NCBI GenBank assembly: GCA_963645885.1
Contig: CAVIUL010000001.1
Location: 22,265-60,643, forward strand
Length of the DNA: 38,379 nucleotides
Source of the DNA: a bacterium
GTDB lineage: Bacteria > Bacillota_I > Bacilli_A > RF39 > UBA660
Direction: 5' to 3'
The notes under the pieces are model-generated. The model ran no database searches. It was not told the origin of the DNA and saw only the letters and a list, made by a program, of their open reading frames with translations. The position numbers and the translations under genes were made by a program. Numbering within the stretch: the first letter of the stretch is position 1; the number at the start of each line of letters is the position of its first letter. This document shows, piece after piece, positions 3,001-38,257 of this stretch.

Positions 3001-3675
3001 GATATTCTTTATGATACTAATTATATTGATTAGAATAAAGAAGTACATAGACCTATAGAAGGTAAATTAGATTCAGATGGAAAACAAGTATACGATAAAT
3101 CTACTATATTCCCTCTCTATTATTCAAGAGAAGATACTTTTAATGAAATTGAAGATTCTTATAAAGAAATGACAGCAGCTAACAAAGATTATGAATCTTT
3201 AGCTGGAGCTGAAATTGTTAAATATAATAATCTACAAGAATATCGTATTTGGAATCATGCTAAAGCTGCTGATATTACAAAAGTGGGAAGAATGTAGGGT
3301 AATATGCAATATAAAGAGGATAAATGGGATGTTCAAATTAATCCAATTAATATTGTAGAACGTAACGAAAAAGAATGGGGAACAGAAGATAGTACAGGAG
3401 GAACAGATTTAAATCCTAATAAAATACCTATTGTTTTATAGACTAATAGTATTCCTTCTGAGGTTTGTGATAAAATTCAAAGAGAAGGTACTGATATTCC
3501 TAAAAATTCTGAGGATAGAGCTATATATTCATGGGAGGTTGCAGGATTTAACGATTCTTCTAATAGTTCTGTCAAAGTAAAAGATAAATGGGTAAAGATT
3601 AGGATAAGATACTCTGGTGAAAAATTAGCAATTATCACTGCAATACGAACATTTTATAGTGGAAGTTATTCATAA
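1..3675 (+). CDS. Large virion/tail-associated structural protein, 5' partial (>=1,224 aa), TAG-recoded
   Basis: Frame 1 is open from base 1 to TAA at 3673-3675, apart from 13 in-frame TAGs. ORF-track fragments 478-1206, 1210-1743 and 2320-2646 all lie in this frame. The position directly upstream of cargo-like genes suggests a tail or muzzle-type protein, but I recognised no diagnostic motif. Confidence 0.8.
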
Positions 3676-7036: not shown

Positions 7037-7614
7037 TTATAAATAATAAAGAATATAAAGTAAAAGAAGCTAAAACTGAAGAAGAAAAACGCAAAGGATT
7101 ACAAGGAGTAGAAGAGCTTCCTGAAAATGAAGGAATGCTCTTTTACTTTGATCCTGATGAGGAAATTACTATGTGGATGGATAAAACTAAAATACCTCTT
7201 GATATTATTTTTATAAATGAAGATTATGAGGTAACTAAAGTTCATCATGGTATTCCTAATGATAAAACCCAAATATCATCTCCTGAAACTGCTTATGTTT
7301 TAGAAGTAAATCAAAATTCAGGTATTAAAGTTGGAGATGAGGTTGATTTTGATGATAATGATAAACCTCCAATTATGAAAGTTTTGGCTCCAGATGGTAG
7401 TACTTAGATGGAATTATGGGGTGGAGAACGTATAGTTAGTAGACGTGAAACCAAAATCCTCATAAAAAAAGCAAAAGCTGCAGAATTAGTAAAAGATACT
7501 CCTAAATATAAAAATAAATGTATTTCATTAGGTAAATATATGTTTAAAGTATTACGAGGTTAGGATAATAGACCTAATGAATATGTAGAAAATAAAAATG
7601 CTAAAACCGAATAA
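7024..7614 (+). CDS. DUF192 (COG1430-like) domain protein with a basic C-terminal tail (196 aa)
   Basis: The ATG at 7024 overlaps the upstream gene by 13 nt. Frame 1 is open to TAATAA at 7612-7617, with 2 in-frame TAGs (7405, 7561). The sequence KRKGLQGVEELPENEGMLFYF...ITMWMDKTKIPLDIIFINEDYEV...AYVLEVNQNSGIKVGDEV matches the DUF192 pattern as I remember it (GLm..l....GmlF, fwM.nt..pLDiiF, yvLE...G...i..Gd.v). Confidence 0.8.
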
Positions 7615-7683: not shown

Positions 7684-8046
7684 ATGAATATTACTTATAA
7701 AAACGCAGTAAAAAACGTAAAGAAATTTCAACAAGGTGGCCCAATGGGTCCAGAAGGTGCTCCTGCAGAAGGTGCTCCAGAAGGAGGTGAAATGCCAGCA
7801 GAGGGCGCACCTGAAGGTGGTGCTCCAGAAGGTGCTCCAGAAGGCGGTGGTGAGGATCCAATTGCTCAGTTAGTGCAAATCTTCGCACAAGGACTTCAAA
7901 ATCAAGATTGTCAGATGCTTGCACAGGGTGCACAAATGTTTATGGAACTCGCTCAACAAATGCAGGGCGGTGGTGGTCAACCAGCACCAGAAGGTCAGCC
8001 TGTATTTAGAAAGGGTGGTAAACTTGCATACAGAATTAAATATTAA
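7684..8046 (+). CDS. Small acidic PEGA-repeat / Gln-Met-rich protein (120 aa), TAG-free, function unknown
   Basis: This is an intact ATG-to-TAA ORF in the standard code. It is visibly GC-richer than its flanks. All 15 Gln codons are CAA or CAG, and 5 are CAG, which is rare elsewhere in the window. A promoter lies upstream and a terminator downstream. Confidence 0.85.
   Translation: MNITYKNAVKNVKKFQQGGPMGPEGAPAEGAPEGGEMPAEGAPEGGAPEGAPEGGGEDPIAQLVQIFAQGLQNQDCQMLAQGAQMFMELAQQMQGGGGQPAPEGQPVFRKGGKLAYRIKY
7750..7851 (+). repeat. Imperfect in-frame repeats of ccagaaggtgctcc-type units encoding (P/A)EG(A/G) repeats
   Basis: Read directly: PEGAPAEGAPEGGEMPAEGAPEGGAPEGAPEGGG. Confidence 0.7.
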
Positions 8047-16000: not shown

Positions 16001-19000
16001 GTTTATGTAGATAGAATGAAATCTATTGATCCTACAATGTCTGAAGAAGAAAGAAAACAAGAATAGGCATAGATAGGTCTTGACTATTCGAATAAACAAG
16101 CAGAAATTATTCTTAATAATCTCTCTAAATTTATTCAACCTTTTATTGATAGCGGGACAATTAATACTGAAACAAAAAATCAACTATTAAAAACATTAGA
16201 ATAGCTTAAACAAATATCAATCAATAAGACAAATGAAGCTACGATGTATGATGCTTCTGAAGAAGAGCAAGATTAGTTGGCAGAAAAAACTGTATAGGTT
16301 CAAAATGCTATTGATGAAATATCAAAATTAGGTAATACTTCTTTTGAAAAGAATTTGAATGAATTTTCTATTGCTATAGGTAATGAACCTATTAATATGA
16401 CACAATTACTTGAAAGATTAAATACCTCTTTCAATGATGTGTCTAATAATATCACTAGGTTTAATATGGATGAGCAATTGTATAAAGATTTAGACAATGC
16501 TATTCATACTATTGAAATGTATCAAGCTGCAATAAAAGGAGCTAGAACAGATAATGCAGGAACTGGAAATTATTTCGGATATAATGCTACTTTAAATGAG
16601 ATAGCTAAGAAATCTGAAGGAGATTTTCCTGAACTTGCAGAAATTGATAAGCTTTCTGCAGATGTATTTATTGCAGATATTAATACTAATTTAAGTAAAC
16701 TTTTATTTTTAAAATAGTTATATCAAATAAACCAAGGTCAAAAGATGACCAGATAGGATAGAGTTGCTGAAAGAAAAGATATTTTATTCTATAGAAGAAT
16801 GAAAAGTATTGTTTCTGTTCCTGATGATGATCCACTAAAATCATGGGAAGGATTTCTTGAATTAAAAAATACTATAGAAGCAGCAACCCTTCATGAAAAT
16901 TTTAGAGACTCTGAAATTATTCAAGAAAAAGATAAAGAGGCTTTTGAGAAAGAAAACATACTTATTGAAGATGCTATATATGACTTTTTCTAGAAAAATT
17001 AGGAAAAAATAAAAGATTCCACTAAGTTATCTGAATTTATAAACGGACGTCATTTGAATCTTTATACAGAAGCTAAATAGATTCTGAATGAAGGTACTGA
17101 TGTTATGGATGATAACTCTATGTTATGGTGGATAGCAAGCCGTTGTGCAGTAAAATCTTCAGCATTTCATAATAGATATTCTTAGATAATTAGTGATAAA
17201 ATAGCACCTATTGCTACTCAAGAATTAGCAGTTTATAATAACTATGCAAATATAGTAAATGGTAATGTTTTTACAGCTTTTGCAAAGGCTTTTAGAGAGT
17301 CTATGGTAAAAGATTGGAAAAGTAAATCTGTAGAAGAAAGAAAGAGAATTTTAACAAGTTTAAATAACTCTGAGGCTTTAGCAGATGATAAATTTGTAGA
17401 TTATGCTTTAAACTTTTTACCTGTTCCTAGATTTGCTAATGTAGTATTAACCGAAGGAATTGCAGGCAGTGGTAAAACTTCTAGTGTATTTACATAGACA
17501 GTTACAATGCTTAAAAAGTTTAATCCTGACGTTTTAAAAAATGTTGCGATTGTACATGGAGCCTCTAAATCAAGTGCTGAAGAAATTCAATCATTATTAG
17601 AAATAGAAAATTCTAAAAGCTACGATAGAGCAGGCTGGATGAAAGAAATTTCTAGTCAATGGAAAGAATATTTAATTGATCCAAAAACTAACAAACATCT
17701 AATAGAAAAATCTGCATATACATTTAGTTCTGAAAATGAAATTCGATCAGCATTAAATATTAATCAAACAGACACACCTCCAAGTCTTATTATTATTGAT
17801 GAAATCTCCAAATTCTCTACTTATGATGTAGATTTAATTAATGATTTTGCTAAAAAATATGGAATTACTGTCTTAGTAGCAGGAGATTTTGATCAATCTG
17901 GAGTTGTAGGATAGCATCCTATTGCAGTAAATGGAGAAACATTAAATTGGCTTCCTGAATTACAAAGAACAAACTTTATTAGGTCTCCTAAATTAGGAGT
18001 ATCTATGAGAACTGATAATTCTCTTAAAACACGAAATCAACAAAAGGTTCAAGCTTATATGCAAAATCACACTTCTGAAGATTTAATATAGCTTGAATGG
18101 TTTCAAGACGAAACTGGTTTATATGGAGATAGAGTCATTAGTTATGAATTTAATGACCCTGATGTTAATGTTAACGATTTAAGAAATCAAAAAGGAAAGG
18201 TTGTTGATAGTGTTATAGGACAAGTTGATAAATTAATTTAGACTTTAAAGCCAGGAGAAAAAATAGGTTATATATTTAATGACAAATCATCTCCTATTTA
18301 TCAAAAATTAGCATCTGATGAATATAAAAATTTTATAGATTTAAAAGAAGGTGGATCTGCTCAAGGATTAGAAAGTAGATATTATGTTATTGAAGCTGAT
18401 CCCACAATTGGACTTTCTAGTTCAGATAATATGGGCTAGAAAATGGCTGAAGATAACTATTTAAAAGAAATTTATACTGGAATCACTCGAGCATAGCAGG
18501 GAAGTATTTTAATTATGCCAACAGACATGGGACCTAAAATAGGTACTGTTTAGGTTAAATCTAAAATTAATGAAATTATTAATCCTGCAATAATTAAAAG
18601 TTATTCTATCAAAAGAAAAAATCTTTTAGAAAAAATTACTACTTCTTAGGATATTGAATATGTTCCTCGAGACAAAGAGGCATTAGATACCAAAAAACCT
18701 TCTGGAGAATCTAAAACTGGTTTAGATGAAGGAGTTACTTTACCTCCTCTACCTGATAATGAAGATACTACAAAAAAATCAGCTACAGTAAAACCTGATA
18801 GTACACCTGATGCAATTACACCTCCAGAAACAGTAGATTTTGAAACTCTTCCTTCTGGAGATTAGGAAGAATTATCAAAAATTCAAGAAAATGTAATTAA
18901 GAATCCTAAAACCGAAGAACCCTGGGATACTAATGATACTAAATCTTTAATTCCTTATGGATAGATTGTTTCGGTACAAGGTGAATATGGTGTTATAAAA

Positions 19001-22000
19001 GGAATTCAAACGAAATCTGATGGAAATCATAAATATTTAATTGAGACAAAAGAAGGTGAAAAGGAAATAAACTATAAAGATATAACTCAACTTATATCTA
19101 ATGCTAAAATAGAATCACCTGTAGTTTTAGATCACTAGGAAATGGTTAATAGATATGGAGAAATTGCAAATGTTGAATCCATAACTGTTAATCATAATGG
19201 TATTGAACTTACACTACCTTTATGTCAAATACCTTTCAAATATAAGAAAGAAACTGGAACTAATAATATGATCAACTATTTGCATAGAAATATTGTAGTA
19301 GTTAAAATTGGTAATGTTCACATTCCTTTCTATATGAGTACTGGTAGAGGTGGTAAAGAAAATGTACAACCTGGATTATGGTATCCTTTCTTTGGAATAA
19401 AAGATGGATGGTTAAATAAAGGTACTCAAGAAGATATTAATAATTTTTATGGAAGTCCTATTCTTAAAATTGTATCGGAACAATTAAATAATGTATTAGG
19501 AACAGGATATACTGATGATATAAAAGGTCCTTTAACATTTGAAGAAAATGTTGATTCTATTCAAATTTAGTATATAAATTAGGATTTAAATCCAACTGCT
19601 AATGGACACTCTGATACACTTTAGAAATTTAATGATAACGTAAAATAGACTATTGAAGCTATTGATAAATCTTTATCTGAAATTATTCCTGACATATCAG
19701 GAACTGAAGCTCCAAAATTGAGTTATGAAGACGATACTGCTCCTATTAATTTCAACAGCGATACTCTTGATGATAAAACTTATCAAGATATGGTTGATAA
19801 AGAAAATGAACCAACAGCTTTACCTGGATCTCAAGCAGTAAATGAGGGGTCTAAAATTGCAATTACTATGTTATTACATTCATTTAATACTTTTGAAACA
19901 GGTGTTTTATGGGATGAAGAAGGAAATCCAGTTCCTGTTGGAGATTAGACATGGGCAGATGCACGTATTGATAGTGTTAATGGATTATTAAAATTAGATA
20001 GGTTTAAAGGAAAGAAAAAAGAATATTATTTAAATGCATTAGGTTTACTAAGAAGTCATTTATTTAATACTGAAGATAAAGCCGAATTAGTTAAAAAACT
20101 AGAAAAAGTTTTGGGTATAGACGGCATTTATCTTACTTTTGCTTTAAAGAGTTCACCTAGACCTGGAGAAGGTAATAAATCCAAAGGAAAAGAATTTGTA
20201 GAAGAGTAGCCAAGTCGTTTTAGTAAAGGTATTAGTGAGACTACAGAATTTAATGGTTCATCTGATTCAAGATCTCATGAATGGCATCCTAAATCTCTTG
20301 TTGCAATTATTGGCACAAATGCTGATGGTGATGTTTTAGAACTTCCACTTTTAGCAACATCTTCACCATTTACTTTATTACAATTAGAAAATGATTAGAA
20401 ACAAAAAGTATTCCCTGATGTTTTAAGTACATTTGAAAGTTTAAAGAGTAATGGAATGGGATATTATGATATTGCTAATAAAATAATATCCAAATTTGAA
20501 AATGTTAACGAATACAAAGATTTAATAGACTTATTTAAATTATTTGTACGTACAGACAGAAATATAGAATATTTAAGAGATCCTAACTGGACTATTGCTC
20601 GTAATTTAAATTTACAAGGTGCAATTTTTGCTAAAGATAGAGGTAAACTTATGGGAGTTCCTGGATTTGATTATGATGCAGATAGTACTCCTGAATCTGA
20701 ATGGAGCACATTAGATTCATTATATGCAGATCCTCAAAGATATGTAACAGAATAGATTTTTTCTTCTGTAAATGATACAACTACTACTGTAAACGGTAAT
20801 GAAATTCAATTCTCTAAACCTGGACATGCATTTGTATTAGCGTCTTATGATAGAAGTTTAAGTACTGACGAGGAAGTTGTAGAATACTTTACCAAACAAT
20901 GTAAAGATCCTAGTTTACCTAAGAAAGTTACTCAAGTATATATTGTTCCACCAAAAGCATCTTTAGAAGAATATATTGAAAATTTACGCAAAATTCTTGA
21001 TAAAAATGAACATGGAGCATTGCCTATTGGTCAATTCTTTACTTCATATAAGTTACTATAGGTTCTTTTAACAAATGATTCATTTAAAGAAATATTAAAT
21101 AAAAGAGTTCCAGGTTTATTACAAAAAACTCAAGATGCAATAAATTATATAAAAGAAGCTTTTGATGCAGCATAGCAAGCTACTTCTCTTAGTGAAAAAG
21201 CAAAATTAATGGGAGAAGTTAGGCAAAGATTATTTGAAGCTCAAGATTGGTCTAGTATAATTGGAGGAACAGCTAAACCTGTTAAGTTGGCTGGATTATT
21301 AGATGGAGTAATATTAAATTTCATCTATACAAAAAGTTCACTTCAATCATTAATTACTGGTGATTATGGAGTTTCTTTTGAATTTGATCAAGATAATTTT
21401 AATCTATTTAAAGGTATTTTAACACAAGCAGGTATTGATGGAGTTAGACATAATATAAAGATTCCAAAGAATGCACCTCGTGTAGGACCTTTTGTAGTAG
21501 TTTCAACTAATTATTCTCTAAATGGAAAACCATTTAGAGTTCATAATAAATTAGATTCATATACTTTTTCAGGAGATATGTCTAGTCTTATTCATAGTTA
21601 TGTTGATGCTTTGCGTCCATCTAAGCCAGATAAAGATGGAACAATACATTATGCAGGAGCTGATACATATAGATATTTAAAAGGAAAATCTAATATAAAT
21701 AATTCTGTTAAATCTAAAGATGATATTGATAGAGATAATCTTGAAAAAACATTCAAAAAGAAAGGATTAGATATTAATCAAATCTTAACAAACGCAGGAT
21801 TAATAGACATATATTAGAATCAACCAGTAGAAGATTCTATGAATAGAATTATAAATACAATTAACTAGACTATTCCTAATAGAATTGCATTCAAAGTTGG
21901 AGGAGATTTAATTATAAGTGATCCTGTAGAAGAACTTGGTAATTAGACTTTCTTAATTGACTCAAACGACAATCCTATTACAGATTTAGAACCATTATTT

Positions 22001-22480
22001 GATAATTTTGGAGTAGCTAATTTTAAAATAAGAGTTAATGATGTTGAATATTTATCAAGTTATAATAAATCTACTGGGACTATTAGAATGACACCTCCTG
22101 GAGAATATCATGAAAATGCAGCAACTGCAGTTAAATTATCTATTACAGAACAAAACTTTAACGAGTATATTGCTGATGGTAAAGAAGCTCTTTTTGAATG
22201 GATTGATGAAAACGGATAGTATTACGATTGGGAGATAGAAGACCTTTTTAACTCAACATCACTTGAGGAAATGCAAGAAGTTATTAGTCAAATGACTAAA
22301 TTAGACGATGATGCATTCTTAGATTTAGAAAAATATACAGAAAGTGATGAGTTTAAACAACTTGATGATAGAAAGAAATAGATTGTAAAAGAAATAAACG
22401 AATTAGAACGAGCTATTCGAGATAGAAATTATGATGAAAATCAAGAAACTTGTAAAATTGATATAACTTTTAAAGTATGA
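13049..22480 (+). CDS. Giant protein (3,143 aa) with N-terminal hydrophobic/TM-like segments and an internal SF1 (RecD/Dda/Pif1-like) helicase domain
   Basis: The ATG at 13049 lies 2 nt after the upstream TAA. Frame 2 is open for 9.4 kb to TGA at 22478-22480. I checked every gap between track ORFs and found 52 in-frame TAGs and no TAA or TGA. The hydrophobic run is LALVGSMFIPYVGPWIAGLSVATQLAGLGATLG (about 13850-13950). Confidence 0.85.
17456..18493 (+). other. SF1 helicase core motifs inside the 3,143-aa protein
   Basis: Motifs read in order: Walker A GIAGSGKT (17456-17479); Walker B/motif II LIIIDEIS; motif III VLVAGDFDQSG; motif V-like GGSAQGLESRYYVI; motif VI YTGITRA (TGITRA at 18476-18493). 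They are collinear across 5 TAG-separated ORF fragments. Confidence 0.7.
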
Positions 22481-25400
22481 ATAAATGTGAATTAAATAAT
22501 TCATCATTACTTTAGATTAAAGATTTAACAGCCCAACTTCTTAAACGTGGAGTGAAAGAACGTTGGGATGTTAACTCTTTAAAATCTAATTTTAATGAAT
22601 TTATCAAATAGGTATTAGACACCTATAAAATGTCTAATAATGATGATATAAAATTAGTTGCAGACATTATGTATACTCAAATACCTAGAGCTAAAAGAAT
22701 AGTAGCTTTAGATCCTGAGTATTTATCTATGAATAATGTAATTAACTTATTAGATGAAGCTGTATAGGGTGTTGAAAAAATAGATACCAAATCTGCAAGC
22801 ATAGAAAAAATAGAAGAAGGTCCTCAAAATAGATTACAAGCTTCAGACATCTTTTTAGATAAAGCTTATGGAGGAGCTGTTAATGTACGAAACATTTTCT
22901 GTAAACAAATAGATCAAAATTTATTTGATTGCATGTTTATTAATAGAGGATCTATCAATACTAAATTAGGAATTGTAGGAAAAACATGTGATTTAAATAA
23001 TAACATTAGAGAATATCAAGACTTTTTGTTGCAAAAAATCGTCGAGTATCTAAATACAGATGTATTAGATATGAGAGTTCAAGGAGAAGTAAAAAATATT
23101 CTTACAAATCCTAGAATGTATAATAGAGGGAAATATACTAAAGCTTTAGATATTTTATCCCCTTATATTAATACCTATTTAAAATCTTTAGAAGGACAAA
23201 CTGATCAATTACGTCAACTGTTTAAAAATAGATTAAAAGATCCAAAATCTAAAAGAAGACTTGATGCATTTAATGCAATGGTCATTCTAAATAATTTTGA
23301 TAGTTATGTTTCTAATATGCTAGGCAAAGCTATTCAAATAAAAGACTTTGGATTATTTACAGGAGAAGATAAATATCAAATTTCTGACTAGACTGCTAAT
23401 GTATATACAACTTGGAGAACTTCAGAAAATATTAATATTGCAAATGAAGCAGATGCTATTACAAAATTAGCAGTAAATACAACTCCTTTGTTAAATTGGA
23501 ATAACGATACTCCGTCAGATGGAAAATATTTAAAATTCCAAGATTTTCAACATATTATTTCTAAAATAAAAGATTTAACATATAATCCAGCAGCTTCTTC
23601 TATAATTTTTGATGATAATTTTGAATTAAGTCGCTCTGATATTTGGGATAGTTTATCAAAAGAAACTTAGGAATATTTAAAAGGTAAATCTCTTAGAGCT
23701 GCTATTAGTTTGGTTAGAAGTAATCCTAGAGCTTATCTTCATTCAGTTTTTGAAATCTTAAGTAATAATAAATTTAAAAAATTAAATCCTCAATTATATT
23801 CTAAGTTCTATAATGATGAATTAAATAAATTATATTCTATTTCACAAGGATTATTTAATGGAAATTATAGTTTAAGGACCTTAACTGATGTTAAAAGTCC
23901 TAATGATTTTTATTCTTATTTAACTTAGACAGCTGATTCTATATTTAATGTATAGTATTTACAATACTATAGAGATGATAATGGGTTAATAAAAAGTCGT
24001 ACCTTATTAGACCAAGGTGTAAATAATGTAAGAAGATCTATTGAACAAGCTATAAACCTAACAAATAGTTATAGGTTAATCGGCGATTGGAAGAAATATT
24101 CTGAACCTTTTAATTTTTAGGAAAAATATAATAAAGATAATTCTGCATTAACTGAATTATCTTTTAATATTCCAAACACTGATTTTAGAGCTACTGTAGA
24201 TTCTACTGGTAAGGTAAGAATAACTAAAAACGGTTTCGGAATTAACTATTCTGAAAGTTATGAAGAATTAAAGCCTTTTATAGATAATATTCTAAAATTA
24301 AATTTAGAAGAAGATACCGTTTTTGAAGAAGCTATATTTGAAGAATTAGGAGATTCTACAGTTTAGGATTTGTCTGCATTTGCAACAAGAGTTATTTTTA
24401 ATTAGTATGTTAATTAGAAATTTTTATTAGATGTATCCCCATAGAATAGAGATATTATTTTATCTTCTATTTATGGAAAGACTATTCCTAATTGGAATTA
24501 TGCAATTGATGAATTAGGATTGATTCATAAATCAGATTTATCAATATTACATAAAATATCTGTTGCTAAAAGTAATGTGCAAGGTTTAATGACATCTACT
24601 CAAGTAAAAGATTCTCAAGGAAAAGCATAGAGTAGACAAACTTTAAGTAGATTATTAGGTTCTTTTAATTCTCAATATGAATTATAGGAAAGATTACCAG
24701 ATTCAATATCAAATCATTTTATGATATTGAATACACCTGGATTATTTGAAGGAGTCTATACAGTAAAAGAATTTGCTGGTGAAAATGTAGATTCCAAAGA
24801 AACTACAAGTATGACAGTACGAGAAATGGCATTATCTCAATTTATGTATGATTATATAGGAGGAATAATGCCGCAAGATGAGAATAATTTAGTTGGTAAT
24901 GGACATATTATGTTATTACCTTCTGTAAACTCTGATAAAAGTACTATAGGAAGAATTAAAATTAATCTAAATTCTAAAATTAATATTAATGGAGAATAGA
25001 AAGCTCTAAAAGATTTAACAACTATTGAATTAGAACAAGTAATAGATAAAGAATTTGGAGATTTCTATGAAAAAATGGTATTTAAAATCCAAAAAGATTG
25101 GAGAACTTTATAGGATTTTATAGGACCTAATCTTGGTATGCCTAGATTAGATTTAGATTTTTTAAATAATTTTTCTGAGTTTAATACTTGGTATGCTAAT
25201 AATAGAAAAGAAAGCGATCCAAAAAGAGTAGATGACTTTATTAAAAAGAAAGTTTTAGAATATAATAAAGTTCATAGACTTTCTCCTTTAGAATTAATAG
25301 ATCAAGTTCATTTCAAATCTAATAAAAATGGAAACCTTTCTATAAACGAAGCAATACTTGCACAAATAGCTCGGTTTAAACCATCATCTTCTATATTTAA

Positions 25401-28400
25401 TAATAATCAACTTCTATTATACAGATACCGTAAAAAAGAAGATTTTTGGATTGAAAAAAAGTCAGAAGTATTGAAAAGTTTGCTTTCTAGTAAGACTAAT
25501 TTCAATACAAGTAATACTGTATAGGCTGAATGTAATTATTTACGAGATTGGAATAGAAAACAGGTATCTTCTGGAAACCCTAATTGGATTAATTCTTCAG
25601 GAAACTTAATTCTCGCTAAAATTATTATTAATCAAGATACACCAGATGAGCGTATAGTTGATATAACTTCACAAAAAGACTTTGTAAAATTAGGAATTTC
25701 AAATTATCATGAGTTTATTACAAGTCACGCAGCTGATATTCAATTAAATCCTTTAATTGAAAAATATAATGCACTTGATTATTTATTTACTCAAGAGTTT
25801 ATGAATACCACAGTAGGCTCTTTTGTAGCCCATCCTAATAAAACAGGGTCACAAGATGTTATTGAACAAGAAGCTGGACATTTCCAAGCTCAGCATAAGC
25901 GTAATGTATCTATGACTGCAGCAATGCATGAATTTTAGCTTAATTTGTTATCAGGAATTCCCGAAACTTATAATTTAGCTGTAATTGATGATATTCATGA
26001 TGAACAAGGCACAATTACAGGGTTAATAAATGGAATCAAACCTTTTGATGGTGCTACATTTGTAAATCCCTTTGTTGTTCTTCTCGAAAATTATTCTTTA
26101 TGTGGAGCTAAAGCTGGTATTAGTAAAAAATAGTTTGTTCATTTTAAAAACGAAAAAACTGGTACAGGTGGTATCATTAAAACTGCAGGATTTGGATTAA
26201 CTAATGATTGGATTAGAAATTCTCCGTTTTTACAAAAAATGATGAGAAAAATGACAAACCATGTTTGGCTTAATGAAGATGGATCTTCTGCACATGTAGA
26301 TATTACCAAAGATTATTCAGGAAACAAAATAGAATATAAAAATATTTATTATAAATAGAATGGAAAGTATTATAGAATTACCGATATAACTTATAATGGA
26401 AATAATACATATACTTATAATTTATAGGAAGTTGATGCAAAAGGTAATTTTATACAATATATGAAACCGTCTCAAGGTAGAAGATTTGTTTCAGAATAGA
26501 TTGATACTAATTATAAATTATGGAATTTCTTTGGTGGTGCGTGGTCTATGGAATTAAAAAATGGAAAACTAGTTCCGTCTAATACATCTGTAGAAAACGT
26601 AGTTACTGCAATGAACAATACTAAATCTGAAGAAACTGTATTAAACAAAACACCTAAAACTCAATCAGATTTATGGCAGCCTCTTAAAATGGTTGATGTT
26701 CATTATCTTGCAACAGCGGGTGCTGTAAAACAAGGTGCTGCTAATATTAATTCATCAAGCAAATATACAGATGAAGAAGATTATGATATTTAGAAAATTC
26801 ATATGTATCAAGCAGGAATCCAGCTTGATAAAGAACATCATGCTGATGAAGCAGAACTTTCTTTAATGACTCAGGTTATATCTGCTTGTGCCGCAAAAGG
26901 ATATACATTTGAAGCCGCAGCAACACTTTATGATGCTTTAGCAAAAGCAACTAGATCTAAAACCTCAGATCATTTAAAAGCTGTAGAAAATTTATTTAAC
27001 GCAGATACTCCTGAAAATAAAGCAGCTCTTAGAGAGGTTTTAGTAAAATCTATCGTAAAAGTATTATCTACAAGTAATAGTAATAATTTTGCTGTAAAAT
27101 TGTCAAAAGAATTAGAGCAACAAGCAAAAAATGGAAAAGAAATAAAATATTCTGAACAATTATTGCCACTTTCTGATAATAATATTCACGCAAAAGTTCT
27201 AAGTGCTATAACTTCATATTTATCAAAAACTGGTATTAAACAAAAAATTCCAGGTGTATTATCAGTGCTTACACCTTCTTATAATATAAATAAGATATAT
27301 GCTGGTAAAAAGTATGAAGCTTATGAAAATCCAGATGAAGAACTAGAACAAATACAAACAAAATAGGTACCTGTTTATGATAGCAGTTTTAAATATCGTA
27401 AAGGATCTAATAGTTTCAGAGGTTTAACTTTAAATTTTGTTGAACCTAATAGTTTAATTTCTGAAATAGATGGATAGCCCGTAGCTGCTAGAAATAATGG
27501 AGATGGAATTGTTTCTCTAGATGAAGCTTTACTTAAATAGAAATTTGAAGATAGAGCTTGGAAATACTCTAGAAATTCAAGAGCTCTTGATTAGGATTTT
27601 GAAACTTATGAAGATTGGCTTAACTTTGTATTACTTCATGAATCAATGCATGATGAATATAAAAAAGAGGAAGGAGAATCTTAGTTTGATTATGAGTCTC
27701 GCGTTAATGACGAAGCATTAAAACGTCTAAATAGTTCTATTAACAATATTGAACTTGGTAGAGAATATTATATTACTGAAAATGTTCAAATTGATCGTGA
27801 GATGATGGATGAAGCTGGAAATATTATAACAGTTTCTGAAATACAAGCAATAACTGGTAAACCTAGATTAATAAGAACTCCTCTTGAATATTATCAATTA
27901 AAATAGGATATTGCTACAGGAAAAGTTTCAAAAGTTGTTGAATGTGTAAAAAACGGTAGAGACCTTGCAGGTTTTAATGTACGATTCAAAACTGATAAAG
28001 GATATTTTTAGTTATGGGATTTAGATTCTTCTCACTGTTTATTTAATTTGAATGAAATATCTGAAGGTCTTAAAAAAGGGAAATTAACTCAAGAAGAAGC
28101 AATTGAGGAGCTTCGAAAAACATTCTAGAGATTCTATCCAAGATTTAATGAGTTAGGAATAAATATAACTTTTGATAATTTTCCAAATTTATTTAAACAA
28201 TTAAAAAGATATTCACATAAAAAATTACAACAAGATTTAGCTAATTTATCAAAAGAAGAGCCTAATGTTTTAGAATAGTTTTAGAAATTAGTTAAATCTA
28301 AGCAAGATACTCCAGAATGGTATTCTCGATTTGCATCTTGGATAAATGTTAAACTTGGATTAAGAAATGGTGAATACATACAATTGGGAAATGGAACTAA

Positions 28401-31400
28401 AGTAAAAGTTACTAGGGATAATTATAATCAAGTGGGAGCTTATGTATTATAGTTATTCAAAGATATGTCAAAAGTTAGAATTAATGGAGAACTTCATAAA
28501 ATTGATAAAGAATCTATTAAAACATAGCCTTATGAAGTAATAATGCCTAAAACTTTTGCTACAGCTTTCGGATTAAATGAATTTGATTCATTAGAAGAAA
28601 TTGCAAAAGATCCAGAATTCTTCTTAAAACAATATATTAAAAATCAAGCTTCTAAAGTAGCTTAGAATTAGTATTCTGTTGAATTTAAAAGGTCTACAGG
28701 ATAGCATATATATGTACTAAACAAATCTCAAGTACCTGGTTCAGGATTACATAAATTAGAAGGAGTTTTAACTGAAGTTGAAGATGGAGTTACTACAAGA
28801 TTAGATTCAATGAATCAACCTATGTATGAACTTTCTCCTGATTCTGAAATTTACATAGATGATTAGGGAAATGAAGTAATTGTAAGTGATGATATTGAAT
28901 TTTATACCAATTCATTATTTTATGATTCTATAAAAATTTCAGAGAATTTAAGAAATAATTCATAGGTATTAAGATCCCTTCCTGAAATATTTAGAAATTC
29001 TTCAAACAAAACAGCTAATGCGTTTGGGAAATTTTTAAGGTCTTATGGAGATTCTAATATAATTATGGGAAGTGATGATTGGAATGATATAGACCAAAAT
29101 CACCCTATAGTAAAATTAATGCATGAAAAACATTCTTCTTTCTTAAGAGCATTAGATATTGTTGCTGCTCGTATTCCTGCACAATCTATGCAATCATACA
29201 TGCCTATGAAAGTTGTAGCTTTTGATAACCCAAATATTAATACTGCATATGTATCTACATATCAAATTTTACTTCAAGGTTCCGACTATGATATAGATGC
29301 AGTTTCTTTAGCTACTTTTGACATAGACTCTAATGGAATGTATTAGCTTTGGTCTCCATATGCTAATATTTCAGATATTGAAAAATTACATGCTTCAGAA
29401 CTACTACCAATTCCAACAGGTTTAGAAACAGAAATTAAGAGTACAAACGATATAGCAGAAGCAATTAAGATTTTTGATGAATATCAAGATTTAATATCTA
29501 TTACTCCTAGACAAACTTACAATAAAGAGTCTAAACTTCCAGAAATTGATCCAAATAAAGTAAATGTAGATTTAAATTTGGATACAGCTGAACAAATAAA
29601 GATGTTAGGTGATTTATTAAATGAATAGTTATTGTCAATAGATCCTGTGTATGCTCCGCAATTTATTAAAAAATTTAATAAATTAGGAGGATTTTAGGTA
29701 TCTAATATAGAACAAATTAATGACATTTTATCTCAATTAAAATCAATCATAGATAAACATAATTTTTATTTTGATAAAGTTTCTGAGAAGAAACTCAATC
29801 ATATCATTAATAATAGAACTATACTTTCTATGTATAATAGTATTAATAATCCTGTTAATTTAACTTAGGCTCATATGTCAGTGGATAATACAACAGGCCC
29901 ATTAAAAGATGTTGCTGAAAATGGATCTCCTGAAATTATATATGAATCAAAACATAGAACTCCTGGAAATTTTGTTAATAAATGTGAAAGTATTAATGAA
30001 AACCAAGTTGGTAAAACAGGTATTGCTATTTGTGCTACTGGATTAAAAGGATTTTTTGCATTAACTCAATATAATAACTATTTATTAAACAAAGGAACTT
30101 CAGAAGAATAGAACAAACTTCTATTTAATGTATCAATAGGTAATAATATATATAGAACTTTAGCAAATATAAGAGCTTTAGATCCCAATACCATTACTAA
30201 TAACACAGTGTTAAAATGTTTAGCTCAAACAGATAATGATGAAGATGCTGCACTGGTTTTATCTGCATTACTATCATTAGCTACTGATAATGCCAAAGAA
30301 TTAGCTCTTTCTAAATTAAATGCAGGAACTAAAACATTAGGTATGTATGTTTATGGAATAGCTATAGGTATGGACTTTAAGGATATTGCCAGACTCCTTA
30401 TGTCAAAAACAGGTAAAACTATAGTAGATATTTCTGAAAGTGATGTATTTGATCAAACAGACGGATATATTACTATAAAATCCGCTTTTGGATATTTCGA
30501 ATAGTTACCTAATAAATATTTAAATAAATATAATATTAGAAAAAATCCAAATGGAACTTCAATAAAATCCCCATTAGAATTTTTTGAAGATTAGATAAGA
30601 AAATTACCTGATGATTTTTATTTTGAAGATGATGGTCGAGAAATGCCATTAAATGTAGTTCTAAGTAATTTTGCTAAAAGAAATTGGGATTTATCGGATA
30701 AATTATAGATATTAGAATCATTAAGAAATAGATACAATACATCTGCTTATGGATCAGAAGTTTATGAGCAATTAATAGACTTTTTAGAAGATTATGTTAT
30801 TGGATCTTTTGAAGTTAATGAAGACTATGAAACATATCAATAGTTAAAAACATTAGCTGAAGGAGCAGATGAAATGAAGACATTAGGTCAAATATTAGGT
30901 TTAAATGGAGGAATTGCTACTGACTATGAAGGATTAACTAAACAAATAGATAGAATTGAAGAAGTTATTTATAAACAGTCTCATGATTTAGAGGATATTA
31001 TAGATTTATCTAAATTTGTTTTTGATTCTGAATATCGTCAGGAATGTATTGAAAAATACGAGACATTTAAACATACATTTAATATTCTTGACTGTTTAGC
31101 TAAAGTTCCACATTTTTTTGAATATGTAAAATAGCTTGCAGTTGCTCAAGAAGAGATAAAACAATCCTATAAATATAGAAGTGTTAAAAGTTTAGCTCGC
31201 AATGTAAGTGATGTAATTGGGTGGAGTAACAAAGGAAAAATTTCTAAAGGATTACAAAATTATATAGGTGACAAAATCAGAAATGACTGGATGCTTGATA
31301 GTGAAATAATAATGGATATGCCTTCTGGAATTAAAGCATTTGACAGAAATGGTGATAGTGATACTTTAACTGAAAGTAAACCTATAAGATTAGGAACTGA

Positions 31401-32409
31401 TTGGGGTAATGCTACATTTAGAATATTTATGGAAACTCAAGTTATTCCTGATTTAAAAAAAGGTATTATTCGTCCAGGAACTAGTGTAGGATCCATTAAA
31501 ACTAATAAGTTTATAAAGGATTTAACCCCTGACTTATTTACTAAAACAGTATCTTCTAATCCTACTATATTATATACTTTACCTATTAATATGTTACCTA
31601 GAACAGATGTTGAATAGTCTTTACTAGATTCTTATATTGGTGAGTTTAATGAATTAGCAGGATATACATACGATTATAATGTTATTAAACGAGATGTTGA
31701 TGGAAATGAACAAATTATACAACAATCAATTCCTATTAAAGATTTGTTTATTTACTATTCAATGATAGCACATAATTGGAAATTAGGAGAAAATTCATTA
31801 GTTCCTATTTTAGAAAATTTTTAGGATACTGGTTTAATTGATGCATTTCATAAATATGAGGCATCTTTAGATAATAGTGGGGAAACTCTTACTGAATACA
31901 ACATAAATGAAATTCTTCCATACGTTGTTCCAAGAATGAGTCCTTATTCTGCTTACACAAAATATATAAAAGCGAAAAATCCTTCTAGTAAAAAGATTGA
32001 AATAATGAAAAGAACAGTATCTGATACACAAACTGATAATAATGAGATGTATGAAGGAAATGAAATGTATGAGGATATTATATATGGAATGATTGATTCT
32101 AATAAAATAGGCAATTATGAATTTATACAAAACAATCTTGATACTAATTATTTCACATCTGGTATAATAGGAAGTACAGATAAAATTATAAAATCTGAAA
32201 TTATAGATAATAAGGGTGAATCCTTACAATTAGAAATACAGTATGATTCTGAAAATGATAGTATTAAACGAGTTGCTGTTGATAATGTTATGTATGATAT
32301 TAAAACATTATCTCATGCTCTATTTACTAAAATAGACGGAAGAAAAGTTCCAAATCTATCATTGATGAAAAGTATAATTAAAAATGAATTATATCCATGT
32401 CATGTATAA
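22477..32409 (+). CDS. Giant protein (3,310 aa): putative virion-packaged two-barrel RNA polymerase (crAss-like vRNAP)
   Basis: The ATG at 22477 overlaps the upstream TGA (ATGA). Frame 1 is open for 9.9 kb to TAA at 32407-32409. I checked all gaps and found 52 in-frame TAGs. It contains a beta-prime-like DPBB segment, AARIPAQSMQSYMPMKVVAF...LLQGSDYDIDAVSL. Confidence 0.85.
29284..29298 (+). other. DxDxD (DYDID) candidate catalytic metal-binding motif of the RNAP
   Basis: The codons gac tat gat ata gat give D-Y-D-I-D. The upstream R-x-P...hydrophobic strand resembles bacterial beta-prime (RAPTLHRLGIQAF...NADFDGDQMAVH) and the DxDxD motif reported for giant crAss-like phage proteins. Confidence 0.65.
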
Positions 32410-33455
32410 ATAAAAAATCTCCTGAGTACTAGGCTTTGAAAAATAAGTCTGGTATTCAGGAATTTATACTAGAAGCTATATGTAGAGATTTTGTTGATGA
32501 ACATCAGAGATTTCCGTATCTTGATGAACTTTCAGATGTTAATTCTGAACTTCATTTGAAAAAACGATTATCTATTAATTCTTATGGAACCTCTAATATT
32601 AGTACTATTTTAGAAAAAAGTAATGCTTCTGATTTAGAAGAAGCAGCAATCAATTTAAATAATGAATACAGAGATTTAGAAATAGATATTACTCCTATTC
32701 AAGAAACTGCTTTTATAGATATAGAACATAGACCTACAGATTCTAACTTCGAAACAAATCCAGTAACAGTGGATGAACATCCAAATAATTATGATATTTT
32801 TAATAATGCATTAATAAAATTAGCATCATTATATGGAATAAAATTTAATGCAATAACTAATGCTGAGTTAAATTCTGAAACTTGGAATAATGTTCCAGGA
32901 GTAATGGATGCTAATGCATTTATATTTAATGGAGAAATTTATATAAATTTAGATAAAAGTTCAGTAGATGCTCCTTTACATGAATTAATGCATTTATTAA
33001 TTGGGTCTATGAGATTTTCTGATCCTAATATTTATTAGCAATTAGTGGCATCTGTTGAAAATATTCCAGATTTTCAAAAACTAGCCCAAAATTATCAAGG
33101 AAGAACAGCAAATGATATAAAAGAAGAAATTTTTGTTACTGAAGTTGCAAAACATTTAACAGGTCAATCTTCTTTTATAGATAATTTAGATGCTAATATT
33201 CGTTATGAAATACTATATAATACAAGAAGATTATTAGACTCTATATTAATGGGACAAGATAGTGTAAGAACAATCTCTCCTAAAAGATTGTTTACAATGT
33301 CATTAAAAAATCTTACTAAAGAAGTTAATTCTGTAATAATGTCTAATAATTTTAAAGGGTATGTAAATTCTGAAGATTCTGAGTTACATAGAAGACTTAA
33401 TAATATTAAATCAGATTTATTAAAAAATAATCAACTAGAAGAATATTGTGAATAA
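32397..33455 (+). CDS. HExxH protein, putative zincin-like metallopeptidase (352 aa from ATG 32397; 339 aa if the TTG at 32436 is used)
   Basis: Frame 3 is open to TAA at 33453-33455. The ATG at 32397 overlaps the upstream gene by 13 nt and needs read-through of the TAG at 32430. A second in-frame TAG lies at 33036. The motif VDAPLHELMHLLIGS has HELMH at 32979-32993. Confidence 0.7.
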
Positions 33456-36400
33456 TGGCATGTATATATAAATATAAAGGACATACATTTAATTCTGAAT
33501 TAGAACTTGATGATTTTATTCTTGAAAAACTTCCGTTTGAGCCAACAATGGGCGATTTAGTCTTTAGTATGACCGAATAGCAACTAAATATATCTTCTCA
33601 ATTAAGTAAAATAGCTAAGGATTCTCATGAACTTGTAAGGAAATATCAAGAAATGTTAAACAACAACAAAGTTCTTTACAACGAGGATGGAGAAATGGCT
33701 TTAGAAGATCCTCCTTATATTGGAGTAAACAAGTTTCTTTCTGGATTAAAAAATGAATCAGGAGAATTATTATTTCCTGAATTTAGAGAAGAAGAATATT
33801 GGACACGACGATATGCTAATTGGAAAGTTGGACAATTCACAGATGCTGAAATAGAAGAATTTGAATTAGACAAAAATAACTTACCAAAAATTACAGAAGC
33901 TAGTGAACACAAGAGGCTAAGAGATTAGATGACTCATAAATGGGAAGTTCAAGCAAAAACTGGTTCTGCAATACATAATATTTTTCAAATTTGTTTTTAG
34001 AAAGAAAAGGGTGTTTATAATTTTTCTTTAGATGATGCACAATTAGAAAAAATAATTGAATCTAAATTAGAAGAAAAAAATAAACCTTATATAAAAGGAG
34101 ATATAGTTCAATAGGCAATTAAATATGCTAGAGAACTAAATGCAAAACTTACAGAAAAATTTGGAGAAGGATGTGCATATTATCCTGAATTTATGGTATC
34201 CCAAGATACAAATATTATTGAGAAAGGACATCCTACTAAATTAATGGGCATCATTGACCTTTTAATTGTAGATCCAACTGGTAAAGTACACATTTTAGAT
34301 TATAAGACTTCTATTCATGATTATCATGACTTTGTTCAAGCAAAAAAGAATTCTTATAGTTATCAATTAGGTACGTATCAAAGAATGTTACAAAAATATG
34401 GAGTACAAACATATCAAGGATAGTTAATGGTTGCTCCTATTCAAATTACTGATTTTAAAAAGGACGGAGATTCTTATACTTATTCAGGTATTACTACTTC
34501 TGAAACAATTACTGAAGTAGGTGTGCAATTAAATGCAGATAAAATGTGGGAGAACATTGATGAATTTATGCCTGCTCCTTTTAAGTTAAATATAACAACT
34601 TCTGAAGCTATTAAAACTACATCAGAAATGATGGCAAAATGGTTTCCTAATTATCGTTCTAATTATAAAATTAATCGCGAAGATTTGATTAAACGATTAA
34701 AGCAATAGAACAAATTAGAGAAAAATGAAAATGGACAGTATGTTTATACTAAATATGACTCTAAAGAAACTATTGTTGCTACAGAAGAAGGCGAATTTGT
34801 TGATAAAATTCTTAAATATGAACAAGGTTTACCAGCAAAACGATTGGAAGTTACAGCAAGAGTTAAAAATGCATTAACAGAAGCTATAAAGAACGGTATA
34901 GATAATGTGGATTTTCCTACTCCTACTACTATATCTTCTGATGGTTCTACAACCTGGTTAAAAGATACATTATCTCCATATTGTAATGGTCTTTGGGAAA
35001 TAGAAGATAATCATCTTCTGGAATCATTTGGAGTAATTATGTTAAAAACAAAAGATGGTATATCTCCAAAACAAATTGAGTTTGTTCGTGTTAGTACAAA
35101 TACATTACGAAGAGATCATAGAGCACATTTAGATAAAGAATCTAGAAAAAATGTATTTATGGAAAGAAAAGGATTACTTTCTAATTATGAAAATGATGTA
35201 ATTTAGAAGTCTAAATCTAATTCTTTAATGGTAGAAGGTGTTCAAGGTAATGTTGAACTTATAGAAACATTATTATTAATCAACCAAATGAAAGGTTTGG
35301 AAGGCTGTACAATTGGAAATGTTCAAGTAGTAAATCCAATTCAAGCAAACGGTATTTCTTTAACTAATGAAGAATTAATTTATTGTTGGAATGAATTAAA
35401 CAAACATGATAAAGTAAATTTTGACAATATTAAAAATGGTGATATAAAGTTTGCTAATAAATATGAAATAGCCAGAAATAAATTTGCAAATATCATGAGA
35501 TTAGGTGCAAAATGTGATTGGAAAGATAACTATCGTTTATTTGGAAAACTCAGAACATCTTTACCCGTACTAGATGAAAATATAAACGGAACAACTGAAG
35601 AAAAGATTTCAGCGTTAAAAGAACTTTTAAATAAAATTTCACAAAGTGATAATGCAAGAACTTTAGACAAAGTTTATTCAGAACAATCTGATTTAAAATC
35701 AGAAGCTGTAGATTTATATAACTCTATATTATAGGCTATAGCTCAATTAAAAGGAGTTAATTTCAGACAACAATTAAATGATCATGATAAATTTGTTGAA
35801 AGTCTTGCTATGTGGAAAAATGGATTATCAGGTACTTATATTGATAACCCTGGAAATATGGATAGTGAAACTCTTAATTTAGTAACAGGTTTAGTTACAG
35901 AGGCTTATCAAAATACTAGAGATGATATTCAAAGAGAAAAACCAAAAATTTATAAGTTGATAGAAAAACTTAAAAAGGAGAAAGGATTTAATGTAATTTC
36001 TGAAAATACTATAGGCAACTAGACATCTCTTTATTCTAATATGTTTTAGCCATATACAAAAGGAGGAGATTTTCTTTTTAAAAATCCGAATGATTTACAA
36101 GGTGCTGAAAAAGAATTTTTAACATATGCACTAGACAAAATAAATCGTAATCGTTATCCTGGAAAAACAGACGAAGAATATGAATATATGAAAAATTCAG
36201 GAAGTATTGATTATTATAGAGTACCTTTAGCTAAAGGTGGAGAGGATTCAATTGCTTCTACTAGAGGATTGTTAAGTGCGTTAAGAACTAAATTAAGTTA
36301 TTTAAATCCTAAAACAGCTTTCCAAAATGCTAGAGAAAAAGTAGAAGGAATATTTAATGCTGATGAAGATATTTCAAAGCAACAGCAAACAGAATTAATA

Positions 36401-38257
36401 TATAAAATGAATACAATGTTTGATGGAGGAGAAAATACTGAAAAACGTATTAAAAAGTTATAGGATAAAGGAGAAGACTTTTTTGAACATAACTTAGAAA
36501 CATTACTTTATAAACACATGTTTTCATACTCTGTAAAGAATAATATGGATGGAGTATTTCCTATGATTAAGGCTGCTATGGCTCATATTTGTACTTAGGG
36601 AGCTATGCAAAATCATAAGTTTAGTGAAGATATTCATTATTTAGATCGTTATATTAGAAATAAAATATATAACCAATCTATTATCGATCCTAAACTTCAA
36701 GATGTAGCAAAAAAATTAGGATTGTTAAAACAAGCCGCATCAAAATTAACTTTAGCATTTGCTCCAGTTCAAGCATTTTATCAACCTTTACAAGGACTTT
36801 GGACGGATATAAGTCTAATGATTCGTAAACCTGACGGTAAAGATTCATTTACATTTTCTCATTTCACAAAAGCTTTGAAAATGGTATACTCTGATTTGGG
36901 ACACTTTTCTGATTCTCCTACTATTTGTTCATCACTTAACGAAATTTATGGAATAAATGATATGGATATGAATACATATACTGAACGTATTAGTAATGCT
37001 AAAAAAGGTATATGGAATTTTGAAAATTTTATGTTTAAATTTGCATCTCGTCCTGACTTCTATAATCGTATGAGTATTTTCCTTTCACAAATGATGGGAG
37101 ATGGTTGTTTAGAAGCGCATACTTTAAAAGATGGAGAATTAATATACGATTGGAAAAAGGATAAAAGATTTGAAGCATTTGCAAATGGTAGAACTAGTGA
37201 CCCTAAGTATCATCAACAAAAAACATTATACTATACTATAGCATAGCAATTTGTAAATGAACATGCTAAAGTTAAATTATCTGACGGAAAAGTTACAGAT
37301 TTTAAATTAGATATGTCAAAGCCTATGCCTTTACCGAGAGCTTACACTAACAAACAAGCTGAAAGTATGAAATCTTTAGGAGACGATATATATGGTTACT
37401 ATTCGCATGAAAAGAAATCACTTATAATGTCTACTACATTAGGTAGTCTTTGGTTACAATTTAAAACATACTGGTCTGGTAAAAAGAATCAATACTTATA
37501 GTCTGGAGGAGTTCGATTAAGAGGTAATTGGGAACATTATGAAGAAAATGGTGAAAAATATTATTATCAAACTGATAAAAACGGTAACACTCTTTTCAAC
37601 GAACCTCCTAAAACTGAAAAAGAATTAAAAGAAATGGGACAAAAAGCAATATCCCCAGTAATGCAATGGAAAGGACAGTGGCAAGAAGGTATTATTTTAA
37701 CACTATCTGATTTAGCTAAAACTGCTTGGAATAATGGAGTTTTGTCTACCAATCCTAATAAATCATGGAATGCGTTAAAAACAGCTTGGAATGAAAAGTG
37801 GAATGCTCAAGATGAAAATCTTAGAACTGCTTATCAAAATAATATAAAATAGTTATTATATGATTTTAGTATGTTCTTAATAGGAGGATGTATCTTAGGA
37901 GCTTTATTAGGAGATTGGCTTGATGAATTAAAAGACGACAATAAGAAAAATAAAGACTTTGTTACAGGATTAGGAATAGCTGCAGCAAATGTAGCTGTAT
38001 TATCTGTAAAAAATTCATTTTTAGACTTTAATGCTATTGATTCTATAGGTGGTGCAGTTCAAACATGGACTCCTTTTTCATTTGATTGGACAACAGGAAC
38101 ATTAAAGAACGCATGGAAAGTAGCAACAGGTGATGAAGATTTCTGGGATGGAGTAATTAAAACATCTGGTGGATTAAGATAGATTAAACCTGCTTTAGAT
38201 GCAATAAAACCAGATATGTTTAGAACTAAGTCTGAAGGAGGAACATTTGGACAATAA
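33455..38257 (+). CDS. Large protein (1,600 aa): N-terminal PD-(D/E)xK (RecB/Cas4-like) nuclease domain, long unknown region, C-terminal hydrophobic helices
   Basis: The ATG at 33455 overlaps the upstream TAA (TAATG). Frame 2 is open to TAA at 38255-38257. I checked all gaps and found 16 in-frame TAGs. The C-terminal hydrophobic segments are FLIGGCILGALLGDWL and GLGIAAANVAVLSV (about 37870-38020). Confidence 0.85.
33929..34400 (+). other. PD-(D/E)xK nuclease motif set
   Basis: The motifs are GSAIHNIFQ (motif-I-like), GIIDLLIVDPTGKVHILDYKTS (D at 34256, D-Y-K at 34298-34306) and QLGTY (34364-34378). This is the classic RecB-family order G.iD...(h)hDYKT...QL..Y. Confidence 0.7.

Follow-up and report, generated by a model that had tools for sequence, protein, structure and literature searches.

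The 38,379-nucleotide (nt) window analyzed in this study (contig CAVIUL010000001.1 of assembly GCA_963645885.1, positions 22,265 to 60,643 of the forward strand; coordinates below refer to the window unless stated otherwise) begins with a gene whose product is matched by PF25731 and PF25729, two Crassvirus muzzle protein families, and it therefore belongs to a crAss-like phage, one of the gut. The subject of the analysis is the gene at 33455-38257 (+), which closes a long forward-strand block and encodes a protein of 1,600 amino acids (aa) made up of two modules. The N-terminal module (aa 1-470; 33455..34864) comprises a conserved N-terminus, a helical region, the core of a predicted PD-(D/E)xK nuclease and a small alpha/beta subdomain, and the C-terminal module (aa 471-1600; 34865..38254) is mostly alpha-helical and is a homologue of gp49 of phage crAss001 and gp65 of phage phi14:2 (GenBank gp076). 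Relatives of the 1,600-aa protein were found on contigs of 160-189 kilobases (kb), which fits the Zeta group of crAss-like phages, whose size range of 145-192 kb and frequent recoding of late genes are given in the text of PMC7886860 on this group; the source phage would fit a Zeta-type phage.

The gene block of the window requires that TAG be read as sense: when TAA and TGA alone are taken as stops, about a dozen large genes emerge on the forward strand and none on the reverse strand. The initial annotation of this DNA had placed the gene correctly. It starts at ATG 33455 and stops at TAA 38255-38257 (the sole TAA), and all 16 internal stops of the frame are TAG codons taken as sense, for a total of 1,600 codons. 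These TAG codons are probably decoded as glutamine; the gene contains 16 TAG, 3 CAG and 57 CAA codons, the last being dominant. The near displacement of CAG by TAG, together with the restriction of recoding to one block, places the gene in the recoded late class and not the replication class. In a near-identical contig from an NCBI assembly (L002, 1-24727), where the encoded protein (P0001) differs by 5 substitutions, the forward-strand block that holds the gene contains 67 in-frame TAG in 5,000 codons, and the adjoining opposite-strand genes (Thy1, thioredoxin, a sigma-70-like protein and DNA ligase) contain 0 in 3,209 codons, so recoding is strictly bounded by strand and block. Recoding is described as a mark of late genes in crAss-like phages in the passages of PMC7886860 that deal with it, and by its codon usage the gene is assigned to the late genes of the recoded block. 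The earlier description of a recoded late operon is thus borne out, and on the question of expression together with the replication genes, the TAG pattern puts the gene in the late block instead. A search of the window for tRNAs found none, hence no suppressor tRNA within it, a search against Rfam matched no RNA family, and promoter-like sites within the gene were not enriched (33 found versus 41 expected).

Evidence for a nuclease in the N-terminal module comes from a family profile, from residue conservation and from predicted structure. The Pfam family PF12705 (PDDEXK_1) matches aa 165-339 (33947..34471) with 47.6 bits and an E-value of 2.7e-12 (curated cut-off 22), and the four motifs quoted in the initial annotation are all present (GSAIHNIFQ at aa 170-178, GIIDLLIVD at 265-273, ILDYKTS at 280-286 and QLGTY at 304-308). 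Conservation was assessed in an alignment of 121 relatives with 37-100% identity to the protein and in a wider-family alignment of 252 members reaching down to about 22% identity. Eight residues are invariant in all 121 relatives, namely G170 and H174 of motif I (GSAIH; 33962..33976), the conserved acidic residue E245 (PEF; 34187..34189), D268 of motif II (GIID; 34256..34258), D282 and K284 of the D-Y-K triplet in motif III (LDYKTS; 34298..34306), and Q304 and Y308 of the QxxxY element (QLGTY; 34364..34378) that is typical of RecB-family nucleases. Across the wider family, E245 is kept in 228 of the 252 members, D268 in 251, D282 in 231 and K284 in 245, and the full E-D-D-K-Q-Y set is intact in 224. 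D268, D282 and K284 are the residues that had been singled out earlier as D22, D36 and K38 of a reading-frame fragment at 34193. The invariance of the catalytic residues among the relatives fits purifying selection on catalysis, and the nuclease is apparently active.

The AlphaFold model of aa 1-470 (predicted local distance difference test score, pLDDT, 82.8; predicted template modeling score, pTM, 0.75) shows a predicted restriction-endonuclease-like alpha/beta fold. When compared with the PDB using Foldseek, its top 22 matches were all nuclease domains of this superfamily (probability 0.87-1.0), including Cas4 SSO0001, a DinG-associated nuclease, AddAB, AdnAB, human EXO5, the Argonaute-associated Cas4-like nuclease ACE1 and RecE; the fold thus matches only nucleases of the Cas4/RecB families, and the RecB-family part of the initial assignment is well founded. 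The 'Cas4-type' part of the label had to be dropped, since the four-cysteine [4Fe-4S] set of Cas4, AddB and EXO5 is absent and C3 is the sole cysteine conserved in more than 60% of the 252 members. Because the iron-sulfur cysteines are missing, the domain is RecB/RecE-like and not Cas4-like in the strict sense. Pfam searches found no ATPase domain in the protein, and thus no superfamily 1 (SF1) helicase motor of the RecBCD/AddAB type. PADLOC gave only a motif-level match to an Argonaute-associated Cas4-like nuclease (E 0.001), and no match was obtained in PHROGs, in NCBIfam or in single-sequence and profile searches of PDB sequences.

Few stretches of the protein are as well conserved as its extreme N-terminus (aa 1-25; 33455-33530), which has the pattern MACxYxYKGHxFNSELELDDF. 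M1, C3, F12 and E15 are invariant (C3 is found in 247 of the 252 members), and the segment is predicted to form a beta-hairpin followed by a helix. It is possible that it serves as a packaging signal, a docking site or a processing site.

The C-terminal module was modeled with similar quality (pLDDT 80.9; pTM 0.80) and has no match in the PDB, either by fold or by sequence. In a viral structure library (BFVD, searched with Foldseek), its matches at probability 1.0 are all Crassvirales proteins. These include the phi14:2 protein S0A048, named 'Structural protein' (probability 1.0, E 7.6e-8), and its phi17:2 counterpart, as well as proteins named 'Putative RNA-polymerase subunit' (cr111_1), 'Exonuclease' (cr4_1) and 'PD-(D/E)XK endonuclease-like domain-containing protein' (crAss-like virus). 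Alignment of the 252-sequence family to crAss001 gp49 with hhalign gave 92% probability (E 6.7e-7, 895 columns) and paired aa ~527-1587 of the 1,600-aa protein with aa 152-1337 of gp49. The homology was settled only with this sequence diversity and the structure comparison, because shallow alignments were inconclusive (only 7-9% probability with hhalign); a search of gp49 and the phi14:2 proteins with the family hidden Markov model (HMM) found nothing.

Several observations connect this module to the virion. S0A048 is the product of phi14:2 GenBank gp076, the last gene of its block and directly downstream of the gene for the 2,180-aa virion RNA polymerase (vRNAP); its GenBank record annotates it as structural from tandem mass spectrometry (MS/MS) proteomics, and it is orthologous to crAss001 gp49 (phmmer E 5.6e-30). 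The products of phi14:2 g065 and g067, which flank the vRNAP gene, were found in particles (bioRxiv 10.1101/2020.03.07.982082), and gp47, gp49 and gp50 are among the proteins identified in crAss001 virions (PMC10172136). Sequence and model comparisons therefore recast what had been described as a 1,270-aa extension of the nuclease: it is no anonymous appendage but the conserved gp49/gp65 cargo module, with the nuclease as the added part. The earlier suggestion that the protein is packaged becomes plausible on the same grounds, since the rest of its sequence shares ancestry with cargo proteins that mass spectrometry has found in the virions of phi14:2 and crAss001. When the aa 471-1600 profile was searched against 1.84 billion representative proteins, it matched 1,051 clusters at E <= 0.001, with 443 of them at E <= 1e-30. 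The match begins at residue ~440-590 in nearly every full-length cluster match, so an N-terminal module always precedes it. Ten of the family clusters are named nothing more than 'hypothetical protein'.

Two hydrophobic helices had been noted near the C-terminus, and only one of them is conserved as such. The helix at aa 1467-1485 (37853..37909), about 130 aa from the C-terminus, resembles a transmembrane segment; its Kyte-Doolittle value of 1.94 is close to the family median of 1.91, and in the alignment with gp49 it falls on the segment where that protein is most hydrophobic (1212-1230). In phi14:2 gp076, hydrophobicity peaks in a segment (1293-1311) that likewise lies about 130 aa from the C-terminus. 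The helix at aa 1502-1520 (37958..38014) is weaker, hydrophobic to amphipathic (1.35; family median 0.89), and is not conserved as hydrophobic.

The nuclease module also occurs in a second cargo protein. Using hhalign, the N-terminal module was found to have a homologue inside crAss001 gp47 (aa 1577-1891; 83%, E 9e-6), which the family HMM matches with 47 bits and which carries the motifs GEVDILSVD, DVKTS and QLSAY. Its presence in gp47 of crAss001 and in a gp49-type protein here indicates, at the level of sequence, that the module moves between cargo proteins. Pfam missed this module in crAss001 gp47 at E <= 0.1. In addition, crAss001 gp47 contains HEAFH at aa 2157, about 270 residues after the nuclease module, and a nuclease and an HExxH element thus appear as neighbors in both phages, in opposite order.

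The genes upstream belong to the cargo block. In order, they encode a 3,143-aa protein (13049..22480, +), a 3,310-aa protein (22477..32409, +) and a 352-aa protein (32397..33455, +), followed by the 1,600-aa protein, directly after which the coding strand flips. The 3,143-aa protein is an orthologue of phi14:2 gp67 (GenBank gp078) and of the crAss001 gp47-type cargo protein by local comparison (E 9e-9). The 3,310-aa protein is the vRNAP candidate; its DYDID at aa 2270 (29284-29298) aligns, weakly, to the catalytic DFDID of the phi14:2 vRNAP. The 352-aa protein has HELMH at aa 195, and the stop of its gene overlaps the ATG of the 1,600-aa protein by one base (TAATG); the two genes are apparently translationally coupled. 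The order of the block, including this one-base overlap, is kept in relatives just 38% identical. The vRNAP and HExxH genes that the initial annotation had placed directly upstream are thus present, and the gene does close the late block.

Two attempts to derive the 352-aa protein from known proteins were rejected. The first was a 'split gp65', in which the 352-aa and 1,600-aa proteins together would correspond to phi14:2 gp65 with a nuclease inserted; hhalign aligned only a 15-residue HExxH motif (probability 0.9%), and the HExxH of gp65 maps inside the C-terminal module of the 1,600-aa protein itself. The second, that the 352-aa protein corresponds to the C-terminal HExxH region of crAss001 gp47, gave no significant match. 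A subset of orthologues of the 352-aa protein (P0477, P0490, P0497 and others; 520-605 aa) contains an inserted ART-PolyVal ADP-ribosyltransferase (ART) domain (aa 182-369 in P0490, E 5e-17), and this insertion suggests a host-modifying enzyme that would be injected beside the nuclease protein.

Other features of the window and its surroundings were recorded. The 3,143-aa protein has a borderline match to AAA_30 (SF1/RecD-like helicase) at aa 1465-1622 (27.5 bits versus a cut-off of 27), with the motifs Walker A GSGKT, Walker B IIIDE and GDFDQ; a phmmer search of this region against PDB sequences gave no match, and no helicase-type domain was seen in crAss001 gp47 or phi14:2 gp078. A D[FY]DxD-type motif (DYDAD, aa 2541-2545; 20669-20683) occurs in the 3,143-aa protein as well as in the presumed vRNAP with its DYDID, and both giants weakly match the same region of crAss001 gp50 (aa 428-608). 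The gene after the muzzle gene (3675-6152) encodes an 824-aa Gly/Ala/Ser-rich product with an intein splicing domain (PF14890, E 5.5e-15, aa 297-543), which, judged by its position, could be cargo protein C1 (gp45-type). A DUF192 protein (PF02643, E 3e-24) is encoded near the muzzle gene at 7024-7614, as it also is in a relative with a 38%-identical orthologue of the 1,600-aa protein (L003/L004 16593-17174), and is followed by a 120-aa low-complexity open reading frame with PEGA repeats (7684-8046). Downstream of the gene for the 1,600-aa protein, among the non-recoded genes, a 284-aa protein (L002 21632-22486, -) carries all four sigma-70 regions (PF00140, PF04542, PF04539 and PF04545); the same phage also carries a virion RNA polymerase.

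On these grounds, we favor, with moderate confidence, the interpretation that the 1,600-aa protein is a packaged and ejected cargo protein that delivers an early-acting RecB-type nuclease. The starting points are the gene structure, the nuclease fold with its conserved catalytic residues, the homology and synteny with virion proteins verified by mass spectrometry, and the recoded late block; from these, we infer the packaging and ejection of this particular protein as well as its activity. The C-terminal 1,130 residues would be this lineage's version of gp49/gp65, packed in the capsid with the virion RNA polymerase and expelled with it through the tail into the cell at infection. There, the conserved hydrophobic helix would probably hold the protein at the inner membrane, or within it, close to the channel through which the DNA enters. 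The predicted Mg2+-dependent nuclease, with its active site intact but no iron-sulfur cluster, would be delivered ready-made and could work on DNA from the very start of infection, ahead of the expression of any phage gene. As substrate, the best guess is either DNA ends or DNA lying exposed where the genome enters. This could be host or competing DNA, with the protein serving as a takeover or anti-defense effector in the manner of polyvalent proteins, or it could be the leading end of the incoming phage genome itself. A takeover or anti-defense role is favored because the HExxH protein upstream and the ART-PolyVal domain of its orthologues resemble polyvalent effectors.

Several points weigh against this interpretation. 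Packaging is argued by homology to the phi14:2 and crAss001 proteins only, and a nuclease injected without regulation would endanger the DNA of the phage itself. In the AlphaFold model, the helix at aa 1467-1485, the putative membrane anchor, is part of a helical bundle. Additionally, no nuclease module was detectable in phi14:2 gp076 or gp078; the cargo protein can therefore perform its core task without one. Finally, about 10% of the wider family has lost E245, D282 and Y308 without losing the module. In a divergent sub-clade (P0364, P0365, P0368, P0374, P0377, P0382, P0383, P0386, P0387 and P0389), the module is present, but positions 245, 282 and 308 are occupied by N, N/L/F and L, giving the pattern N-D-N/L/F-K-Q/E-L. 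In this sub-clade, the module is probably a catalytically dead nuclease fold, and its retention after the loss of E245, D282 and Y308 implies a non-catalytic role (such as DNA binding or a structural one) at least there. The nuclease is thus an accessory to the cargo proteins: purifying selection on it is strong in the clade studied here, and elsewhere it is dispensable or used non-catalytically.

There are several other potential explanations for the presence of a nuclease in this protein. The one we consider the most serious competitor, although still improbable, is that the nuclease resects or nicks the incoming phage DNA and so provides a single-stranded template for the vRNAP, possibly together with the helicase-like domain of the 3,143-aa neighbor. 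This would agree with the behavior of the phi14:2 vRNAP in vitro, which works efficiently on single-stranded or denatured templates but transcribes native double-stranded DNA poorly if at all (bioRxiv 10.1101/2020.03.07.982082), and with the fact that the nuclease module has been seen only in proteins of the transcription/cargo block (gp47 in crAss001, the gp49-type protein here); moreover, AddAB and AdnAB, two machines that resect DNA ends, have nuclease domains that are among its closest relatives in structure, and the neighbor offers an SF1-helicase-type match with Walker A, Walker B and GDxxQ motifs. However, that helicase match is borderline, unconfirmed against PDB sequences and without a counterpart in crAss001 gp47 or phi14:2 gp078, and phi14:2 itself has a polymerase that prefers single-stranded DNA without any detectable cargo nuclease. 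The sub-clade with inactivated catalytic residues also fits poorly, as do the early promoters reported for crAss-like phages, which suggest promoter-directed initiation. In its larger form, this explanation would have the cargo proteins act together as a helicase-nuclease-polymerase start-up machine; that such a machine is self-contained, with the injected nuclease turning the leading genome end into a single-stranded template and so serving as a transcription initiation factor and not a weapon, seems slightly less probable again.

It is also conceivable, albeit unlikely, that the nuclease domain serves chiefly to bind DNA or as a structural part, gripping the genome end in the capsid or during ejection, with catalysis secondary or absent. 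The retention of the module in the sub-clade that has lost E245, D282 and Y308 is in line with this, as is the contact of cargo proteins with DNA and the portal in crAss001 (PMC10172136), but it does not account for the six catalytic residues that are invariant in the 121 relatives and intact in most of the wider family. Equally unlikely in our estimation is that the protein is never packaged and instead works late in the producer cell, in recombination, concatemer processing or the scavenging of host DNA, as small RecB/RecE-type phage exonucleases do. PD-(D/E)xK exonucleases are usually enzymes of replication or recombination, the replication block of crAss-like phages also holds such genes (e.g., crAss001 gp70), and late expression would suit such a role. 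On the other hand, the nuclease is fused to, and the protein collinear with, a protein family found in virions, the gene lies in the cargo block and not in the replication block, and the protein has no significant similarity to crAss001 gp70.

The arrangement is less novel than the initial annotation implied. A PDDEXK domain inside a large transcription-block protein of some crAss-like phages has already been reported in the text of PMC7886860 that treats these proteins, and a 2023 review also states its presence in a large transcription-associated protein (PMC10136315); furthermore, the UniProt-derived names of relatives in the viral structure library already read 'Exonuclease' or 'PD-(D/E)XK endonuclease-like'. 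The architecture itself will not surprise a specialist and does not represent a new kind of system. What the current study adds is the recognition that the remainder of the protein is the gp49/gp65 cargo protein, that the module is shared with crAss001 gp47, that the family is large, and that one sub-clade is inactivated. The roles of the three large injected 'RNAP-associated' proteins are still called unresolved in papers from 2023-2026. In a very large clade, which counts at least 1,051 clusters at the 50%-identity level, one of these proteins bears a nuclease that is apparently active. Its module recurs in a different injected protein of the cultured phage crAss001 and is inactivated in some lineages. 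A one-line published remark can thus be turned into a concrete question that is testable in crAss001, namely the role of a pre-made injected nuclease in the first minutes of infection.

Several known systems resemble the block or the protein in part. The vRNAP/ejection cassette of phage N4 (PMC13434306) offers a parallel in its ejected polymerase and membrane-active partners, although no sequence homology was found between the N4 proteins and those of the block. Polyvalent proteins, described in the consulted text of Iyer et al. (2017, PMC5512222) as packaged multidomain effectors of phages and conjugative elements, resemble the block in being large multidomain proteins delivered with DNA and in the zincin-like peptidase and ART domains that both contain. 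They differ in that the nuclease domains mentioned in that text are ParB-like and RadC and not PD-(D/E)xK; the 1,600-aa protein has two modules and an HExxH protein directly upstream, and no Pfam domain of polyvalent proteins was matched in it. RecB, AddA, AdnAB, RecE and EXO5 (PF12705) share with it the fold, motifs I-III and QxxxY. Unlike the RecB family, however, it has no helicase motor in the polypeptide and is embedded in a virion cargo protein, and it lacks the iron-sulfur cluster that AddB, Cas4 and EXO5 carry. Among the PDDEXK domains that Yutin et al. (2021, PMC7886860) describe in crAss-like phages, that of the 1,600-aa protein falls in the third category; the text on these domains gives no function and does not map the remainder to the gp49/gp65 family.

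The closest counterparts are found in crAss001 and phi14:2. The 262-kDa virion protein gp47 of crAss001 ('putative RNA-polymerase subunit') has a homologous nuclease module with the same motifs, but it is a carrier of the gp47/gp67 type, and the module is internal and not N-terminal. crAss001 gp49 and phi14:2 gp65 (UniProt S0A048; 'RNAP-associated') differ in being without the nuclease module, and the HExxH at aa 245 of gp65, which maps to aa ~617-621 (LEGCT) of the 1,600-aa protein, is absent from both the latter and crAss001 gp49. Nevertheless, their homology to the 1,600-aa protein extends almost from end to end over aa ~527-1587, and all three are encoded last, after the vRNAP, and have a hydrophobic helix at the same distance (about 130 aa) from the C-terminus.

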